Assembly: GCA_014378715.1 (NCBI GenBank) | Contig: JACMNE010000004.1 | Coordinates: 7,725-71,724 of the forward strand | Source: Microbacteriaceae bacterium | GTDB lineage: Bacteria > Actinomycetota > Actinomycetes > Actinomycetales > Microbacteriaceae | Length of the DNA stretch: 64,000 nt | Reading direction: 5' to 3' | Shown: positions 50,559-62,258 of the stretch, one piece after another | How positions within the stretch are numbered: the first letter of the stretch is position 1 | Layout: each line of letters starts with the position of its first letter | Made by a program: the position numbers and the translations under genes | The notes under the pieces: generated by a model | Told to the model about the DNA's origin: nothing | The model's database searches: none | The model's input: the letters and a program-made list of their open reading frames with translations, nothing else

Positions 50559-53036
50559 ATGACTACTCCTCGCACCAAGACTGACCCCAGCGCGCCCCGT
50601 GACCCGGCAGGGCCCGGAGAACGCATCGAGGACGTGGATGTCGCGGACGAGATGCAGGGATCCTTCCTCGAGTACGCGTACTCGGTCATCTACTCCCGCG
50701 CCCTCCCCGACGCCCGCGACGGGCTGAAGCCCGTGCAGCGGCGCATCCTCTACCAGATGACCGAGATGGGCCTGCGACCCGACCGCGGGCACGTCAAGTC
50801 GGCCCGGGTCACCGGCGAGGTCATGGGCAAGCTGCACCCGCACGGCGACGCGTCGATCTACGACGCCATGGTGCGGATGACCCAGTCGTTCATCATGCGG
50901 GTGCCCCTGATCGACGGGCACGGCAACTTCGGGTCCCTCGACGACGGCCCGGCCGCCGCCAGGTACACCGAGGCACGCCTCGCTCCGGCCGCCAGCGCCA
51001 TGACCGCCGACCTCGACGAGGACGTCGTCGACTTCGTGCCCAACTACGACCTTCAGCTCACCCAGCCGGAGGTGCTGCCCGCCGCGTTCCCGAACCTGCT
51101 GGTGAACGGCGCGAGCGGTATCGCCGTCGGGATGGCGACCAACATGGCTCCGCACAACCTCATCGAGGTCGTCGGCGCGGCCCGCCACCTGCTCGACAAT
51201 CCGGCCGCGACCCTCGACGACCTGATGTCGTACATCCCGGGCCCCGACCTGCCGACCGGCGGCACGATCATCGGCCTCGCCGGCGTGCGCGACGCCTACG
51301 AGTCGGGCCGCGGTAGCTTCCGCACCCGCGCCCGGGTCTCGATCGAGGCCATCACCGCCCGCAAGACCGGGATCATCGTGACCGAGCTGCCCTACATGGT
51401 GGGCGCGGAGAAGGTCATCGAGAAGATCAAGGACGGCCTCGCGTCGAAGAAGCTGAGCGGCATCTCCGACGTCACCGACCTCACCGACCGCCGCCACGGG
51501 CTGCGCCTGGTGATCGGCATCAAGACCGGGTTCAACCCGGAGGCGGTGCTCGAACAGCTGTACCGCTACACCCCGCTCGAGGACCAGTTCAACATCAACG
51601 CCGTCGCACTCGTCAACGGCGGACCGCGCACCCTGGGCCTGCGCGAGCTGCTGCAGGTGTACCTCGACCACCGCATCTCGGTCGTCACCCGCCGCAGCCA
51701 GTTCCGGCTCGCCCGCAAGCTCGAGCGGCTGCATCTCGTCGAGGGGCTCCTCATCGCGATCGTCGACATTGACGAGGTCATCCAGGTGATCCGCGCCAGC
51801 GACGACGGCGAGCAGGCGCGCACGAAGCTCATGGAGGTCTTCGACCTCTCCACGCTCCAGGCCGAGTACATCCTCGAGCTGCGGCTGCGACGGCTGACGA
51901 AGTTCTCCCGCATCGAGCTCGAAGCCGAGCGGGACGAGCTCGCGGCAGCGATCGCCTACCTGCGCGAGCTGCTGGCCAGTCCCTCGCGCCTGCGCGCCCT
52001 CGTCTCCAGCGAGCTCGACGAGGTCGCTGAGCGCTTTGGAACGCCGCGGCGCACGATGCTCACCCAGGCGGGGCCCAGTATCGCGACGACCGCCTCCCGC
52101 CGGGCTGGCCCCGTGCTCGAGCACGCCGATGTGCCCTGCCGGGTGCTGCTGTCGACGACCGGGCGGGTGGTGCGGGTGGACTTCGCCGAGGCCCAGCCCG
52201 ACGCGGTGCCGCGCGCGGTGCGCCGCAGCAAGCACGACGCGCTCCGCTCCGATGTGCTCACCACGAGCCGCACCGAGATCGGCGCCGTCACGAACCTGGG
52301 ACGCATCATCCGCTTCTCCCCGATCGACCTCCCGGTGGCCCCGGAGAACTCGATCCAGCTCGGCGCTGGCCGCAAGATCGTCGAGTACATCACCCTGGCG
52401 AACCGCAGGGAGCGCATCATCGCGCTCGTGTCACTCGACTCGGTCGACTCCATCGCGGTCGGCACCCGGCTCGGGGTCGTCAAGAGGGTCACAGTCGGCG
52501 CGTGGCCGAACCGGCCCGACTTCGAGATCATCGCGCTCAAGCCGGGCGACGAGGTCGTGGGCGTCGCCCAGGGGCCGGAGACGCACGAGCTCGCGTTCGT
52601 CAGCGCGCTCGCGCAGCTGCTGCACTTCCCCGCGTCGGCCGTGCGCCCGCAGGGGCCGGCCGGCGGCGGGGTCGCGGGCATCAGCCTGGGGGCCAAGGAC
52701 TCCGCGATCTTCTTCGGATCAGTCGACCCTGAGGGCTGCGTCGTCGTGACGGTGTCGGCGAACTCGGCGACGCTCCCCGGCACCGACCCCGGCCGGGCTA
52801 AGGTGTCGGAGTTCGCGGAGTTCCCCGGCAAGGGGCGCGCGACAGGCGGGGTGCGCGCACACTCCTTCCTGCGCGGCGAGGACTCGATCGCTCTCGCCTG
52901 GGTGGGGCCAGCTCCCGCCCACGCGGTGGGCCCGGACGGCTCGCAGCGGATGCTGCCGGACTCTGGCACCAAGCGCGACGGCTCCGGCACCCCGCTCGAC
53001 GGCGCCATCGGCTCGATCGGCGCCTCGATCCACTGA
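50559..53036 (+). CDS. parC: DNA topoisomerase IV subunit A (GyrA/ParC family)
   Basis: 825 aa, FLEYAYSVIYSRALPDARDGLKPVQRRILY, catalytic Tyr region AAARYTEARL, C-terminal beta-pinwheel. Confidence 0.9.
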   Translation: MTTPRTKTDPSAPRDPAGPGERIEDVDVADEMQGSFLEYAYSVIYSRALPDARDGLKPVQRRILYQMTEMGLRPDRGHVKSARVTGEVMGKLHPHGDASIYDAMVRMTQSFIMRVPLIDGHGNFGSLDDGPAAARYTEARLAPAASAMTADLDEDVVDFVPNYDLQLTQPEVLPAAFPNLLVNGASGIAVGMATNMAPHNLIEVVGAARHLLDNPAATLDDLMSYIPGPDLPTGGTIIGLAGVRDAYESGRGSFRTRARVSIEAITARKTGIIVTELPYMVGAEKVIEKIKDGLASKKLSGISDVTDLTDRRHGLRLVIGIKTGFNPEAVLEQLYRYTPLEDQFNINAVALVNGGPRTLGLRELLQVYLDHRISVVTRRSQFRLARKLERLHLVEGLLIAIVDIDEVIQVIRASDDGEQARTKLMEVFDLSTLQAEYILELRLRRLTKFSRIELEAERDELAAAIAYLRELLASPSRLRALVSSELDEVAERFGTPRRTMLTQAGPSIATTASRRAGPVLEHADVPCRVLLSTTGRVVRVDFAEAQPDAVPRAVRRSKHDALRSDVLTTSRTEIGAVTNLGRIIRFSPIDLPVAPENSIQLGAGRKIVEYITLANRRERIIALVSLDSVDSIAVGTRLGVVKRVTVGAWPNRPDFEIIALKPGDEVVGVAQGPETHELAFVSALAQLLHFPASAVRPQGPAGGGVAGISLGAKDSAIFFGSVDPEGCVVVTVSANSATLPGTDPGRAKVSEFAEFPGKGRATGGVRAHSFLRGEDSIALAWVGPAPAHAVGPDGSQRMLPDSGTKRDGSGTPLDGAIGSIGASIH

Positions 53037-53066: not shown

Positions 53067-53634
53067 CTAGTCCTCGAACGGGACCGGCGCCAGCACCGGC
53101 AGGGTCGACTCCGTGTTGCCGACCCGGAGGTACGGTTCGACGAAGACGCGCTCGTCGCCGACGGCCGGCTGCCACCAACGTGCGGCGATGACCGAGTCGT
53201 GCACGAGCGGCACGGTCGCCTCCGGGGCCGGCGCCTCGAGCCAGTCGTTCGCCGTCGCCAGCGGCAGCCGGTATCCGATCGACGCGAGGTGCGAGCGCAG
53301 GGACCTGGCGGCCGCATCCCGTCTGGCCGCGTCGGCGCGGGCGCTCTCGGCCCGCCTGCGCGCCACCAGTTGCATCGGCAATACCACGAAGAGGGCGAAG
53401 GGCGCTCCGGTGCCGGCGATGCCGACGGCCACGAGGGTGCCGGCATCCGCCGCCCCGACCGTTGCCCCACCCGCGATCACCAGCGCGGCGCCCAGCGCGA
53501 GCACACCGACCACGAACGCCACGATCCCGATCGGGATGATCCGGGCGGGGCGGGCGGAGTCGAGGGCGGCCCGGGTGACCGCCGTGGTCTCCACGGCGGC
53601 CGCCGGCAGCGAGGAGGACGGCACCGCGCGCAGC

Positions 53635-53642
<8 letters not shown>
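53067..53642 (-). CDS. Hypothetical membrane protein translationally coupled to parE
   Basis: 191 aa with two predicted TM helices (IIPIGIVAFVVGVLALGAALVIAG; LVAVGIAGTGAPFALFVVLPMQLV). ATG overlaps the parE stop (ATGTCTGA). High GC3. I recognise no family. Confidence 0.55.
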
Positions 53643-55713
<2,071 letters not shown>

Positions 55714-55931
55714 GGGTGTTCTCCTTCGTGGCCTGCGGGAGTGGTGCGGGCGTGTCCCACCGATCAGCCGCGTTCCAGCCTAATTCACCCCGCCGGCCGG
55801 CACCGCGTCGCAACACCGGGCGGGAAACACTACGCGGTGAGCGAAATCGTGTGTATTGCCACGCGGTTGTCACCGGTGTGTGTTGTGATAGAGCCTGTAT
55901 CCGCACGTATCGAGTTTTGGAGGAACCCGAA

Positions 55932-56150
55932 ATGTCTCAGACCGCCCCCCGTTCCACTGTCGAACTTGAACCGCGCCACGAACTCACCGCCGACGACCGC
56001 TGCGACAGCTGTGGTGCCCAGGCCTACGTCCGTGTCACGATGGCGAGCGGCCAGCTCCTGTTCTGCGCGCACCACGGCGCCAAGTTCAAGGACAAGCTCT
56101 CCGCCAGCGCCCTCGAGTGGCACGACGAGTCCAGCAGGCTCAACCAGTAG
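55932..56150 (+). CDS. Small conserved actinobacterial Cys/His protein (DUF7455-like, zinc-ribbon-like)
   Basis: 72 aa from ATG 55932 behind GGAGGA. CDSCGAQAYVRVTMASGQLLFCAHHG (CxxC...CxHH). The DUF number is assigned from memory. Confidence 0.65.
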   Translation: MSQTAPRSTVELEPRHELTADDRCDSCGAQAYVRVTMASGQLLFCAHHGAKFKDKLSASALEWHDESSRLNQ

Positions 56151-56163
56151 CCCAATCTGCATC

Positions 56164-56203
56164 ACGGGCCGGCATGGATTCGTCCATCCCGGCCCGTTTT
56201 TTT
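56164..56203 (+). terminator. Rho-independent terminator
   Basis: ACGGGCCGGCATGGA-TTCG-TCCATCCCGGCCCGT hairpin followed by TTTTTTT. Lies between convergent genes. Confidence 0.8.
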
Positions 56204-56231
56204 GTGCCACATCCACAGAGCGGATGTCGGC

Positions 56232-58382
56232 TCAGCCCAGATAGCGGCGGGGAAGCTCGGGGCTGACGCGTACCGCGAGCTCCTCCCCGATCGTCCCCAG
56301 AGTGTCCGCCCAGTCCTGGAGGGTGAGTTCGCCCTCCGCTCCCCCGAAGATCACCACACGGTCGCCCTCCTCCGCCGAACCGTCATCTGATCCGAGGTCG
56401 ATCTCCAGGTGGCGCGCTTCGACGCGGCCGACGATCGGGTATCGGCGACCGTCAATCGTCACGGGCAGGAGGCCGGGGCAGCCCGCGGGGATTCCGTGCG
56501 CGGTGCCGAGCGAGACAACGCCGGTGCGCCCGGTGTTGCTCGCACGAACTGCGGTGAGGGTGCCCGCCAGCGTCATCACGGGCGCCAGGCCGAGGTCGGC
56601 CGGTCCCACCCCTCCTCCGGGAGCGATCCCGTAGGTGAACGCTCCCATCCGCACCAGATCAAACCGACAGTCGTCGCGGGCGAAACCCGCGGCGCTGGCG
56701 GCGAGGTGGGTGACGGAAACGTGCGCCCCCAGGTCCTCCGCCACCGCGATGGCAATCCGGAACCTCTCGGCAGCGGCGGTGTCTTCGTCGTCGGATGCCT
56801 CGGCGATGTGCGTCCACACCCCGGTGAGCTGGGCCAGCCCGGCCCGCTCCAACTCGAGGGCGGCCGCTACCAGCGGTGGCCATTCCTGCTCCGTTGCTCC
56901 GTTCCGGTGCAGTCCGGTGTCGATCTTCAGGTGGAGACGCGCCGGAACACTCGCCCCGCTCGTCCCGATCGCCTCCAGCTGGTCGATCGTCGACACACCC
57001 AGCTCGATGCGCGCGTCGATGGCCGACCGATAGTCGTCCCAGGGTCCGAGAAGCCAGGCGAACAGGGAGACCTCGTGGCCGATCCCCGCGGACCGGAGGG
57101 TGAGGCCGGTTGTCACGTCGAGCACCCCGATCCGGGTGACTCCAGCGGCGACGGCCGCCCTGGCGATGGGCAGGAGCCCGTGTCCGTAGGCGTCACCCTT
57201 GATGACGGCCATCAGCTCGGACGGGGCAAGGCGGTCGCGCAGCAGTGTGAGATTGCGGCGGTACGCGTCGAGGTCGATCGTGACCACGCCCTCGGCACCC
57301 TCGGGGTTCAGCTGGCGGCGATCGAGATCTACCCGATCCCGGCACAACCCGATGGCGAACGCGGTGGCGGTATCGACCGGGGTGCGTCCGACTGCCGCCG
57401 CCCAGGTCGCAATGCCGGGTTCGCCCCGGGCCGGATCCCCGACGATCACCACCTCCGCGCCGATCCTGGTCGTCGCCGACCCCAGGTCGAGCACGATGAC
57501 GTCCATGGCTACGCGACCCGCGATCGGGTAGAGCACACCGTCGAGCCACGCGACCCCACGGTTGCCGGCCACCCGGTCCAGTCCATGCACGTAGCCGATC
57601 GAGACCAGCGCGAGGTTGCTGCGCTGGCTTGTTCGGTAGGTGTAGCCGTAGGAGATCCCCTCCCCGGCGTCGACGGTCTTTGTGGCGACGACGGTCGCGG
57701 TCACCCTCAGGGCCGAGGCGAGGGTGGCCCCGTCGCCGAACGGGACCCCGACGAGTTCGCGGTCGATCACGATCGCCGTCGAGCCGGCCGAGACTCCGCC
57801 GAGTCGCCCGGTCAGGGGAGGAGCCAGCCCGGCGCGGGTGGCGGCGGTGACGACGGTCTCGAACTCGGAGCCGATTGCCGTCACGGCGGCGGGGACGTCC
57901 GCACCGGGGAAGCCCCACAGTCCGTCCACTCGCAGATCGCCCCGGCTCTCGAGCCCGGCCGCCTCCGCGAGCGTCACCGCGAGATCCCGGCTGCTGAACC
58001 CGCGCACCCCGCTGCCGAGCGCCGCGGCGAGTTGCACGTGGTGCAGGCCGGCTCGCGCCGCCTCCTCGAGTCCGGCGACGGAGGAGACCACGGGCACCAC
58101 CGTGTGGTCCAGATAGGAGCGCGGATCGTCGGTGGGCCTGTGCCACGCGGCGAGGACGGACCCGACCCCGGCATTCCGCACGGCGATCGCGTCGTCGAGT
58201 GTGGCGACGATCAGGGAGTCGATCCCCCCGGCGCTGGCTGCTGCGGCAAGCGCGGAGGTCGCCGTGGCCCAGCTCGACAGGTCGGCGACGATAGCGACAT
58301 CCGCTGATGCCTGTCGCACTGCCCGCAGGTTGCCCGCAACGGCGTCGGCGCTGAGCGAGAGGGAGTGCAGAGGGCGCCTCAC
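56232..58382 (-). CDS. Tandem (head-to-tail) fusion of two alanine-racemase-fold modules
   Basis: 716 aa, GTG start at 58382. C-terminal module carries AVIKGDAYGHG, HLKIDTGLHRNG, WTHIA, VRMGAFTYG. N-terminal module carries GEGISYGYTYRT, SIGYVHGLDR, GRVAMDV but no PLP lysine motif. See findings. Confidence 0.85.
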   Translation of the reverse strand: MRRPLHSLSLSADAVAGNLRAVRQASADVAIVADLSSWATATSALAAAASAGGIDSLIVATLDDAIAVRNAGVGSVLAAWHRPTDDPRSYLDHTVVPVVSSVAGLEEAARAGLHHVQLAAALGSGVRGFSSRDLAVTLAEAAGLESRGDLRVDGLWGFPGADVPAAVTAIGSEFETVVTAATRAGLAPPLTGRLGGVSAGSTAIVIDRELVGVPFGDGATLASALRVTATVVATKTVDAGEGISYGYTYRTSQRSNLALVSIGYVHGLDRVAGNRGVAWLDGVLYPIAGRVAMDVIVLDLGSATTRIGAEVVIVGDPARGEPGIATWAAAVGRTPVDTATAFAIGLCRDRVDLDRRQLNPEGAEGVVTIDLDAYRRNLTLLRDRLAPSELMAVIKGDAYGHGLLPIARAAVAAGVTRIGVLDVTTGLTLRSAGIGHEVSLFAWLLGPWDDYRSAIDARIELGVSTIDQLEAIGTSGASVPARLHLKIDTGLHRNGATEQEWPPLVAAALELERAGLAQLTGVWTHIAEASDDEDTAAAERFRIAIAVAEDLGAHVSVTHLAASAAGFARDDCRFDLVRMGAFTYGIAPGGGVGPADLGLAPVMTLAGTLTAVRASNTGRTGVVSLGTAHGIPAGCPGLLPVTIDGRRYPIVGRVEARHLEIDLGSDDGSAEEGDRVVIFGGAEGELTLQDWADTLGTIGEELAVRVSPELPRRYLG

Positions 58383-58548
58383 ACATTCCCTTCGTCGAAC
58401 ACGAGCACTATCGACCCCACTCTATCCCGCGGGCGCTGCCAGGAAGCCGGGCTCCGGCCGCCCTCCTCCCTGGTTCACCCACACCCTGGCTGTAGGCTGG
58501 CAGATGGAAATCAGACGTATGCACGACAAATCTTTGGGAGAGAACACC

Positions 58549-59586
58549 GTGGCCTCAGGCACAACCCCACCGCAGAGCCTCGGGCTTCGGACCCGTCTCA
58601 AGTACGTGGCGGAGCGTGTTCGTGGATTCGACGGGGCGTCGCTCCTGACCAGGGCGAGGGCGGTCGCGGCGACAACCCACAAACCGGTCGTCTCTGTGCT
58701 GTGCGACATGCTCTACTCGGCCGCCTTCCGGCACACGGCCTTCCAGGACTACGTCGATTTCGACTTCGCTCTCCTCACCCGGGCGGAGCGGGCGACATTC
58801 ATGACCCACTCTTTCTCCAATCACATCGCGGACAAGTTCGACCACCCGGACTACCGGGTGCTCTTTCACAACAAGATTGAGTTCAACCGCACTTTCGGCG
58901 AGTTCCTCGGGCGGGAGTGGCTCGACATCAGGCGGGCCTCGGCGCAGGACCTGCGCGAGTTCGCCCAACGCCACGGGCGCATCATCGGCAAGGTTCCGGT
59001 CAGTGACTCCGGACACGGGGTGTCCCGGTACGAGGCGGATGAGATCGACGACTGGGATGCGTTCCTCGCGGAGCTCCTCCGCACAGGCCAGACCCTCGTC
59101 GAGGAGAACATCCAGCAGCACCCCGACCTCGCGGTCATCTGCCCCGGGACCGCGAACACGACCCGGGTCACGGCGTTCTTCGACGGAAGCCAGTCCCACA
59201 TCCTCTCGATGGCGCAAAAGTTCGGCCGCGGCCAGGCCAGCGACCAGCAGACGTTCGGGGGCTTCTACACCATGCTCGATGACAACGGCGCGTCCCGCGG
59301 GCCCGGGTACGACTCCCACGACGGCGTCTTCGCGACCCACCCGGAGTCTGGCGTGTCGATCCCCGACTTCCGCCTCCCGATGATGCCTGAGCTGCGAGAG
59401 TTCATCGACCGGGTCAGCCGGGTGGTGCCCCAGGTGCAATACGTCGGCTGGGACATCGTGATCGGTCCGTCCGGCCCGGTGCTCGTCGAGGGCAACTGGG
59501 GAGCCGGCGTCTACGAGAACAAGCCCAGTGTCACCGGAATCCGCACCGGCAGCCTGCCTCGATTCCGGAGCGTCATCGGGTTCTAG
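58549..59586 (+). CDS. ATP-grasp fold amidoligase (resembles the sugar-transfer-associated ATP-grasp family)
   Basis: ORF 58132..59586 trimmed to GTG 58549 (GGGAGAG 6 nt upstream; codons upstream have low GC3). ATP-grasp motifs RIIGKVPVSDSGHGV, LVEENIQQHP, VGWDIVIGPSGPVLVEGNWGAG (ExN). Confidence 0.75.
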   Translation: MASGTTPPQSLGLRTRLKYVAERVRGFDGASLLTRARAVAATTHKPVVSVLCDMLYSAAFRHTAFQDYVDFDFALLTRAERATFMTHSFSNHIADKFDHPDYRVLFHNKIEFNRTFGEFLGREWLDIRRASAQDLREFAQRHGRIIGKVPVSDSGHGVSRYEADEIDDWDAFLAELLRTGQTLVEENIQQHPDLAVICPGTANTTRVTAFFDGSQSHILSMAQKFGRGQASDQQTFGGFYTMLDDNGASRGPGYDSHDGVFATHPESGVSIPDFRLPMMPELREFIDRVSRVVPQVQYVGWDIVIGPSGPVLVEGNWGAGVYENKPSVTGIRTGSLPRFRSVIGF

Positions 59587-60069: not shown

Positions 60070-60771
60070 TCACTGCTCGCGGCGGATGATGCCCATCGGG
60101 GTAGACTGGTGCCCCTGACCGAGTGGATTGTCGCGCAGCACCCGCTCGAGGGTGCGGGTTCTGGCGCGATCGACCGTTGATCCGAGCACATTCCCACCCA
60201 GGTCGTTGATGTCGGTGATGAGCACTTCGACATTACCTCCAAGAGCCGCCCGAAGGGCCCGCGCGACCTCGTGGGGACGCTCGGGGGCAAGGACGACGTG
60301 GGCGTTGAATGGCGGTATGGTTCCGCTGGTCGGACCGTCGATCCCGCGGGCCTTGGGGCCGGCGACCCGGTAGAAGTCACCCCGGCGTCCGAACGGCTTC
60401 GTGACGGCTGCTACGGCGGCGGCGAGTACGATGCGCGGTGTGCCGCACTCGCGCAGCGCCATCTCCATCGTCTGCGGGAGCCCGAGGCCTATGCCGCTCG
60501 GCGTGCGTGCCACGTGGCCGGACAGCCACGTGGCCAGTTTGCGCGGGATGATGGATTCAGTCGGATATGAGCGCCCCTGCGTGATGGCGACGATCTTCTC
60601 GGTCACAAAAAGCACGTCGCGGTCGCGGAGAAGTGCGGAGGCGAACGTGGTGACCACCTCGGTGATGTCGTCGCCTTCCAGTACGAGCTTGGTCTTGATC
60701 GGGATGCGCAGGTAGCGCACGCCGTCGACGACCGTCTCCAGCTGCTTGCCGTCGTTCGCTTTAGCGGGCAT
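60070..60771 (-). CDS. CofE-like (F420-0:gamma-glutamyl ligase fold) protein
   Basis: 233 aa. DVLFVTEKIVAITQGRSY, ARGIDGPTSG, VEVLITDINDLGGNVLGST and NPLGQGHQSTPMGIIRRE resemble the PF01996 family pattern. Assigned from motif memory, not from a search. Confidence 0.6.
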   Translation of the reverse strand: MPAKANDGKQLETVVDGVRYLRIPIKTKLVLEGDDITEVVTTFASALLRDRDVLFVTEKIVAITQGRSYPTESIIPRKLATWLSGHVARTPSGIGLGLPQTMEMALRECGTPRIVLAAAVAAVTKPFGRRGDFYRVAGPKARGIDGPTSGTIPPFNAHVVLAPERPHEVARALRAALGGNVEVLITDINDLGGNVLGSTVDRARTRTLERVLRDNPLGQGHQSTPMGIIRREQ

Positions 60772-60811: not shown

Positions 60812-62161
<1,350 letters not shown>

Positions 62162-62258
62162 GAGGGTACCTTTCAGGTTCTTGCTGCAGTCGTTCTCGGG
62201 TGGTCGTCGAGGCCCTCGCACGGGGTGATCGTGCCGCTGGTTCGGGGGTGGGAGGCGT

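Follow-up and report, generated by a model that had tools for sequence, protein, structure and literature searches.

Canonical bacterial alanine racemase (Alr/DadX; e.g. Geobacillus 1SFT, Streptomyces 1VFH/5FAC and M. tuberculosis 1XFC) is a homodimer with two identical composite active sites, in which the Schiff-base Lys39 of one chain is paired with Tyr265', Met312' and Asp313' donated from the beta-domain of its partner. Residue Tyr354 (Geobacillus numbering) is strictly conserved in Alr and sets alanine specificity; members of the family that act on other substrates replace this gate and thereby admit larger side chains, with Asn in the membrane-anchored serine racemase VanT, Thr in the lysine racemase Lyr and Ala in the broad-specificity racemase Bar (PMC3485190, PMC4542195), although these too are homodimers with complete sites. 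Pairing of an active enzyme with a catalytically dead paralogue as its obligate partner is exemplified by trypanosome AdoMetDC/prozyme (PMC5201418), in which the dead partner acts allosterically. Class III adenylyl cyclases, which are unrelated in fold and chemistry and serve only as an analogy, include both homodimers with two sites and mammalian C1-C2 pseudo-heterodimers with one catalytic and one degenerate site (background in PMC9433096).

Within a 64-kb stretch of Microbacteriaceae DNA (hereafter the window), a GTG-initiated ORF of 716 aa was found to contain two stretches each of Pfam Ala_racemase_N (PF01168) and Ala_racemase_C (PF00842), and scored 271 bits against the TIGR00492 'alr' model, for which the cut-off is 168. 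The ORF and its neighbours are arranged as follows:

56232..58382 (-), whole ORF, 716 aa plus stop, a fused AlrA-AlrB protein of the alanine-racemase family
57720..58361 (-), N-half (AlrA part), aa 8-221, a degenerate TIM-barrel remnant with no PLP lysine; Ser36 (58275-58277) sits at the Lys39 position
57342..57719 (-), N-half beta-domain, aa 222-347, with S244-Y245-G246, Tyr264 (57591-57593), D269/R270, G289/R290 and Met293/Asp294 (57501-57506)
57288..57341 (-), linker, aa 348-365 (CRDRVDLDRRQLNPEGAE), corresponding to the AlrA C-terminus plus the AlrB leader of two-gene relatives
56235..57287 (-), C-half (AlrB part), aa 366-716, with a complete PLP site: Lys395 (57198-57200), Tyr399, Lys486, Arg493, His525 and Arg578; its trans residues are degenerate, with SYG deleted, Thr627 (56502-56504) and GRVEARH
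56283..56285 (-), Glu700 codon, at the position of the alanine-specificity gate Tyr354
58504..59586 (+), divergently transcribed ATPgrasp_ST-family ATP-grasp ligase (PF14397, 85 bits); the start is uncertain (ATG at 58504 or 58519)
60070..60771 (-), CofE-like (F420_ligase superfamily) protein, 233 aa (PF01996, 53 bits; TIGR01916 only 34 bits against a cut-off of 181)
60812..62221 (-), principal-type sigma-70 factor, one boundary of the conserved locus
55932..56150 (+), DUF7455 small protein, convergent with the racemase gene, the other boundary of the conserved locus
53635..55713 (-), topoisomerase IV/gyrase B-type subunit (parE-like), followed by the parC-like gene at 50559-53036 (+)

In order to assign catalytic residues, each half was aligned to solved Alr structures, to a family alignment and to a canonical-Alr HMM, and the three approaches agreed. 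The C-half has the equivalents of K39, Y43, K129, R136, H166 and R219, but its SYG segment is deleted, the Y265 position is Thr and M312/D313 are Ala/Arg. Conversely, the N-half, the best PDB matches of whose beta-domain are Alr C-terminal domains, has SYG, Y265, M312 and D313 but none of the barrel residues. An earlier note, made from the sequence alone, had proposed this reciprocal loss and a single composite site formed by K395 and Y264, and both are supported here. The note had placed Ala33 at the lysine position of the N-half; the residue aligned with Lys39 is instead Ser36 (ADLS36SW against AVVK-SNAYGHG), although this does not matter for the argument, because the only Lys in residues 1-352 is K235. 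The note also knew of no description of the architecture, which is consistent with our finding no description of it in the papers we could search, but it missed both the change at Tyr354 and the ligase neighbourhood, which bear on function. A scan for promoters and terminators across 56050-58650 found nothing, which is uninformative for a 69% G+C actinobacterium.

The architecture is not unique to this ORF; it is one member of a sizeable, so far unremarked family. To determine whether the pattern holds across this family, 126 A modules and 59 B modules were compared with 214 canonical Alr. Residues that act from the PLP-binding chain are about 100% conserved in B modules and at most 13% in A modules, whereas residues donated in trans (Ser259, Tyr260, Arg285, Gly304, Arg305 and Met308 in HMM numbering) are 98-100% conserved in A and 0-17% in B. 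The position of the catalytic Tyr in B modules is occupied by Y, F, W, M, G, V or T (Tyr in 27% of 59), and is therefore unconstrained rather than always lost; the surrounding trans-acting residues are lost in essentially all B modules. In an ungapped alignment (LGTIGE700ELAVR against LGTISYEIVTR), Tyr354 is replaced by Glu700, and the position is Tyr in 100% of the 214 canonical Alr but Glu (39) or Asp (20) in 59 of 59 B modules.

The two parts exist as separate, adjacent genes (alrA and alrB) in many Microbacteriaceae, with 4-nt or overlapping junctions in L002, L004, L029, L056, L084, L086 and L088 (L and P numbers are our handles for the assembled sequences and protein sequences compared), and the stop/start overlaps occur at the point that corresponds to the linker. 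Fused versions in the same order were found in at least 15 distinct sequences; in some of these and other family members (P0011, P0014, P0034, L056_N and others) the A barrel is largely or wholly deleted, although it is still predicted to be folded in the window protein. Both the two-gene pairs and the fused A-B forms, including that of the window, lie at the same sigma70...DUF7455-parE locus, which supports an obligate A:B pair with one Lys/Tyr site. By contrast, canonical Microbacteriaceae alr genes lie in the glmS-acpS-alr-tsaE-tsaB context.

An AlphaFold2 model of the whole 716-aa chain had a pLDDT of 85.1 and a pTM of 0.83, which fits a fixed arrangement of the two halves, with pLDDT falling below 50 at the linker (residues 350-357); single-chain Foldseek comparisons gave both modules the Alr fold (TM 0.86-0.93 to Alr chains). 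We reason that the ORF encodes a covalently linked pseudo-heterodimer of the alanine-racemase (fold-type III PLP) family with one catalytic centre instead of two, a reading to which we assign a probability of roughly 0.72. The C-half has every residue that acts from the PLP-bearing chain, including Lys395 as Schiff-base and L-side base, whereas the N-half is a pseudo-enzyme that cannot bind PLP but keeps Tyr264 as the second base, Arg290 and Met293/Asp294. That the halves pack like the head-to-tail Alr dimer, such that Lys395 and Tyr264 flank one PLP and catalyse two-base racemisation, and that the second, symmetry-related site is dead, is inferred from sequence and model confidence rather than from measured geometry or activity. 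Two-base racemisation cannot be universal in the family, since a divergent subclade (L029, L086 and L088) has Phe at the Tyr265 position of AlrA (19 of 126 A modules).

The neighbours of the racemase are always amide ligases, and two different ligase systems occupy the same slot beside it. In the window, the ATPgrasp_ST gene and the CofE-like gene are present; both are also found in L083 and L091, the ATP-grasp gene being 72% identical to that of L083, and the pair is conserved within the fused subclade. In other relatives, a MurT-like ligase is encoded with a GatD-like protein, an arrangement that recalls the Mur-ligase-like plus GATase_3 pair of MurT/GatD lipid II isoglutaminyl synthase (S. 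aureus 6GS2, S. pneumoniae 6FQB). However, scores were far below family cut-offs (96 against 800 bits, and 87 against 450), and the GatD-like protein lacks the glutaminase Cys94 (Gly or Ser) in 7 of 7 loci and His189 in 5 of 7, so glutamine-dependent amidation is unlikely. Microbacteriaceae have type-B peptidoglycan with Lys, Orn or DAB as the diagnostic diamino acid; D-DAB is the bridge in Clavibacter, D-Lys is recorded for Frigoribacterium and D-Orn for Homoserinimonas (PMC9603630, PMC7033078). From the gate residue and these neighbours we infer, only tentatively, that the substrate is not alanine and that the product, possibly a basic D-amino acid such as D-Lys, D-Orn or D-Dab, is used by the adjacent ligases for type-B peptidoglycan. 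The proposal rests on one gate residue plus gene neighbourhood and, because all Microbacteriaceae have type-B walls, the taxonomic correlation does not discriminate. Membership of the VanT or Bar/Lyr families was rejected: PDB matches to 4dyj and 4dza had E values of 2e-14 and 1e-10, against 8e-65 for Streptomyces Alr; vanT models scored 185 against a cut-off of 460 and 119 against 900, and no extra domain was present; and none of VanT, Lyr or Bar has an acidic residue at position 354 in the cited papers.

The same single-site architecture could simply be the alanine racemase of this organism, housekeeping or secondary, with the change at Tyr354 being neutral or tuning kinetics. The TIGR00492 score is above its cut-off, all core catalytic residues for alanine racemisation are present, and a different, reverse-order single-site fusion that keeps Tyr354 sits at the canonical glmS-acpS-alr-tsaE locus, indicating that the architecture as such is compatible with a housekeeping Alr; furthermore, no canonical alr was seen within the 64-kb window, although a wider protein search was dominated by Agromyces hits and gave no answer for the rest of the genome. 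We nevertheless consider this alternative unlikely, given the invariance of Tyr354 in canonical Alr and its replacement in every B module, the altered specificity that follows its mutation in characterised enzymes, the position of the gene away from the canonical locus, and the existence of a canonical 374-aa Alr (P0416) in another species of the alrAB-bearing genus Glaciihabitans.

It is less likely still that the halves pair between chains, the N-half of one with the C-half of another, to give a dimer of fused chains with two active sites. The linker between the last conserved N-half element and the first C-half strand is short (about 13-18 residues), and the termini of an Alr dimer probably lie in beta-domains at opposite ends; on the other hand, the single-chain model has a pTM of 0.83 and the C-terminal strand of the N-half is remodelled into a helix, which frees extra slack, and in either arrangement each active site is an A-part/B-part composite. 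There is little to recommend a one-base PLP enzyme (aldolase, transaminase or eliminase type) or a non-catalytic binding or regulatory protein: the Phe-bearing subclade has no compensating Tyr in a conserved position and the cassette is rich in pseudo-enzymes (AlrA and the GatD-like protein), but in the window protein and 85% of A modules the Tyr is kept, together with Arg, Met and Asp of the trans set at 88-100% conservation, which is hard to explain without two-base chemistry. Finally, although close relatives do have two genes in different frames, an artefactual joining of adjacent genes was rejected, since a separate Logan assembly, 99.8% identical in DNA, carries the same intact ORF, and at least 12 fused homologues at 41-53% identity, including one from the cultured species Parafrigoribacterium mesophilum, have linkers of similar length.

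A further possibility, which remains doubtful but is not excluded, is that AlrA/AlrB is the so far unidentified racemase that supplies the D-diamino acid of type-B peptidoglycan, and that the adjacent ligase module attaches this amino acid to the alpha-carboxyl of D-Glu to make the B-type cross-bridge; that module would be the MurT-like ligase with its glutaminase-dead GatD-like partner in most genera, replaced by ATPgrasp_ST plus the CofE-like protein in the Parafrigoribacterium/Terrimesophilobacter-like clade of the window. In the literature searched, no enzyme was found to be assigned to making or attaching the B-type bridge amino acid, and no report linking MurT/GatD with racemases was found; the change of Tyr354 to Glu/Asp and the invariable ligase neighbours give a concrete, testable candidate for part of this synthesis. 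Automated annotation labels these proteins 'alanine racemase' or 'alanine racemase C-terminal domain-containing protein', which hides both the asymmetry and the possible change of substrate.

Alanine racemase is a textbook symmetric homodimer and an antibiotic target. A natural lineage that has split the two halves of its active site between a pseudo-enzyme, here donating a catalytic base, and an enzyme, and has then fused them, would be a clean bacterial example of how symmetric oligomers become asymmetric single-site machines, as adenylyl cyclases did; intermediates are still alive, in the form of intact tandem paralogues, two-gene pairs, fusions, fusions with a decaying barrel, and an apparently separate clade of reverse-order fusions.

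In order to establish whether the unusual gene is genuine, the open reading frame and its surroundings were examined directly; the following features were considered.

56232-58382, minus strand: the racemase-like gene, which starts with GTG and encodes 716 aa
56409-58307, plus strand: a 632-aa ORF antisense to the racemase gene
53113-56244, plus strand: a 1043-aa ORF antisense to parE

The two very long antisense ORFs have low-complexity Arg/Ala/Gly-rich translations typical of shadow ORFs in a 69% G+C genome, and are not genes. The racemase-like ORF, in contrast, is real; a separate Logan assembly, 99.8% identical over 2.9 kb, carries the same intact reading frame. Pfam identified two Ala_racemase_N and two Ala_racemase_C stretches, and the NCBIfam alr model scored 271 bits against a cut-off of 168. 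The protein is 100% identical to a MAG protein annotated 'alanine racemase [Microbacteriaceae bacterium]'; the identical protein is also labelled as from a Burkholderiaceae bacterium in public records, although synteny and 83-88% ParE identity to Microbacteriaceae loci indicate that this second label is a binning error.

To assign the catalytic residues, each half was aligned to solved alanine racemases, the protein was aligned to 12 homologues (alignment A1), and it was scored against an HMM built from 76 canonical actinobacterial Alr sequences. The C-half has equivalents of K39, Y43, K129, R136, H166 and R219, namely K395, Y399, K486, R493, H525 and R578; its SYG segment, however, is deleted, Thr627 occupies the Tyr265 position, and Ala/Arg replace Met312/Asp313. 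The N-half has SYG (244-246), Tyr264, Arg290 and Met293/Asp294, but none of the barrel residues. The earlier note, which had read the two halves as having reciprocally lost their catalytic residues so as to leave one composite Lys/Tyr site, is supported by these data, and its codon assignments were correct. It had, however, placed Ala33 at the Lys39 position of the N-half, whereas the residue at that position is Ser36; the argument stands regardless, because residues 1-352 contain a single Lys (K235), far from the motif.

Full-length homologues of 731-745 aa at 49-53% identity come from Parafrigoribacterium mesophilum, Terrimesophilobacter MAGs and metagenomes, and an exhaustive HMMER scan added many more relatives. 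To determine whether the reciprocal pattern holds across these proteins, modules were classed by a few marker positions (Lys39, the SYG Tyr, Met312 and Tyr354), and for every position conserved in at least 90% of 214 canonical Alr, conservation was tabulated in 126 'A' modules (no Lys39) and 59 'B' modules. Because the markers are fixed by definition, only the positions not used for classing are informative. Residues that act from the PLP chain, including K129, D/T/G 122-125, R136, H166, H196, R219, G217 and G222, are 90-100% conserved in B; in A they are at most 13% conserved, apart from Gly217/Gly222 (40-48%), and most of these columns are deleted. Conversely, residues donated in trans, including Ser259, Arg285, Gly304 and Arg305, are 98-100% conserved in A and 0-17% in B. 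The Tyr265 position is Tyr in 85% of A modules, and is unconstrained in B (F 21, Y 16, W 5 and others). Together these data provide strong comparative support for one composite Lys/Tyr site per A:B unit. An exception is a divergent AlrA subclade (19 of 126 A modules; among the loci examined, L029:3091-3474, L086:1148-1795 and L088:5333-6010), which has Phe at the Tyr265 position (GFSDG / GFADG) while keeping SYG, Arg and Met312, and whose partner AlrB has F or Y there in a degenerate context; two-base racemisation is questionable in these, and their chemistry is unexplained.

Gene organization gave further evidence for the pairing of the two parts. In Glaciihabitans sp. UYNi722 (locus L056), a Microbacteriaceae MAG (L002), two other MAGs (L004, L029) and several metagenome contigs (L084-L088), the two parts are separate genes in different frames, with ends that overlap or abut. 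The first, alrA, is short (197-276 aa in the reading frames examined, 215-250 aa where genes were called), with a stub of the barrel without Lys plus an intact beta-domain, whereas alrB is about 350-360 aa; NCBI names the former 'alanine racemase C-terminal domain-containing protein', and it occurs in Agreia, Leifsonia and others. Fused proteins keep the order A-B and range from a full barrel remnant (the window protein and homologues P0002-9, P0012, P0032 and P0033), through a mostly deleted barrel (P0011, P0014, P0039, P0051), to the beta-domain alone (P0034, P0036, P0041, P0046, P0054). The A barrel is therefore dispensable, and only its beta-domain is under selection, as expected if the role of A is to donate Tyr265', Arg, Met and Asp to the site of B.

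AlphaFold2 applied to alignment A1 gave a mean pLDDT of 85.1 and a pTM of 0.83 for the whole chain, with only the loop 162-166 and the linker 350-357 below 50, and Foldseek matched Alr chains at TM 0.86-0.93. We infer from a pTM this high, for two modules of about 350 residues, that there is a defined arrangement between the halves; the Alr-like head-to-tail packing and the K395-Y264 geometry remain inferred, and pairing between chains instead of within one chain is not excluded.

All family members sit between a principal sigma-70 gene and DUF7455-parE-parC, whereas the canonical alr of other Microbacteriaceae lies at glmS-acpS-alr-tsaE-tsaB. In most loci a four-gene cassette (for example L084:3223-7074) runs murT-like, gatD-like, alrA, alrB, or ends in the fused gene as in L090 and L092, with overlapping or abutting gene ends where genes were called; this arrangement was found in L084/L085, L086, L088, L090 and L092, with the same order in L002, L004 and L056, although in L029 the murT/gatD pair lies on the opposite strand. 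The MurT-like Mur ligase and the GatD-like GATase_3 protein are both very divergent from characterised lipid II isoglutaminyl synthase, scoring 96 against 800 bits and 87 against 450 bits, respectively. The GatD-like protein has Gly or Ser at the catalytic Cys94 in 7 of 7 loci tested (L090 and L092 were not among them) and has lost His189 in 5 of 7, and therefore should not be able to supply ammonia from glutamine. The pair represents a Mur-type ligase with a dead glutaminase partner, a candidate amino-acid-adding enzyme for the type-B peptidoglycan bridge. In the window, in L083 (Terrimesophilobacter) and in L091 this pair is absent, and two other genes occupy the same slot; in the window these are:

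58504-59586, plus strand: an ATPgrasp_ST ligase, divergently transcribed
60070-60771, minus strand: a CofE-like protein (F420_ligase superfamily, far below the cofE cut-off)

Two unrelated ATP-dependent carboxylate-amine ligase systems thus alternate beside the same racemase, in what looks like a swap of ligase modules at a fixed locus.

To gain insight into the substrate, we examined the position of Tyr354 (Geobacillus numbering), which is Tyr in 214 of 214 canonical sequences but Glu (39) or Asp (20) in 59 of 59 B modules, and Glu700 here, in an ungapped and well-anchored alignment. Published work shows that this Tyr, with Tyr265', restricts Alr to alanine; it is Asn in VanT serine racemases, Thr in lysine racemase and Ala in a broad-specificity racemase, and swapping it shifts specificity (PMC3485190, PMC4542195). 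A modules also often carry Asp five residues after Tyr265, where canonical Alr has Pro; this is D269 here, and is invariant in alignment A1. Microbacteriaceae have type-B peptidoglycan, cross-linked from the alpha-carboxyl of D-Glu through a bridge that can be a D-diamino acid; D-DAB is the bridge in Clavibacter, Lys/B2beta is recorded for Parafrigoribacterium, D-Lys/B2beta for Frigoribacterium, and DAB for Glaciihabitans and Lacisediminihabitans (PMC9603630, PMC7033078). We therefore tentatively infer a non-alanine and possibly basic D-amino-acid racemase feeding the neighbouring ligase for wall synthesis, an inference which rests on a single gate residue plus gene neighbourhood and is not demonstrated.

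A neighbour-joining tree of barrel regions, for which no support values were obtained, placed all B modules in one clade together with intact, fully equipped paralogues carrying Glu/Asp354, namely the Frigoribacterium P0043 cluster and Subtercola P0040. The latter (Subtercola frigoramans, 597 aa) comprises a fully equipped Alr module (residues 45-412) with Asp at position 354, plus an extension of about 185 residues with no Alr similarity. In Frigoribacterium sp. Leaf263 (L005:9980-12210) two intact alr genes lie in tandem at the canonical locus; the first has Tyr354 but K129->Cys and D313->Asn, whereas the second has Glu354 and K129->Thr and groups with the AlrB clade through its P0043 cluster. 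This is a plausible picture of the ancestral, pre-split state, and the two products may form heterodimers.

A separate clade of 570-750-aa proteins (L082:8001-10232, encoding P0308, in the cluster of P0101; also P0053, P0061-63, P0082, P0091, P0093, P0104, P0105, P0114 and P0156) shows the same reciprocal logic in the reverse order, B-A: the first module has Lys39 and Tyr354 but lacks the Tyr265 region, its beta-domain being gutted, and the second has a barrel stub (Lys->Ser) and an intact SYG/Tyr265/Met312 beta-domain. These proteins sit at the canonical glmS-acpS-[alr]-tsaE-tsaB locus, in L082 that of a 74% G+C organism, and appear to be an independent origin of the same asymmetry; the tree suggests that asymmetric single-site Alr arose at least twice.

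No paper describing tandem, heterodimeric or pseudo-dimeric alanine racemases was found, in a literature search that did not cover most subscription journals. What appears to be new is the architecture, in which the residues of a known kind of enzyme that act from the PLP chain and those donated in trans are divided between two modules. The protein belongs to a wider, so far unremarked AlrA/AlrB family with a possible new specificity and a suggestive link to type-B cell-wall synthesis.
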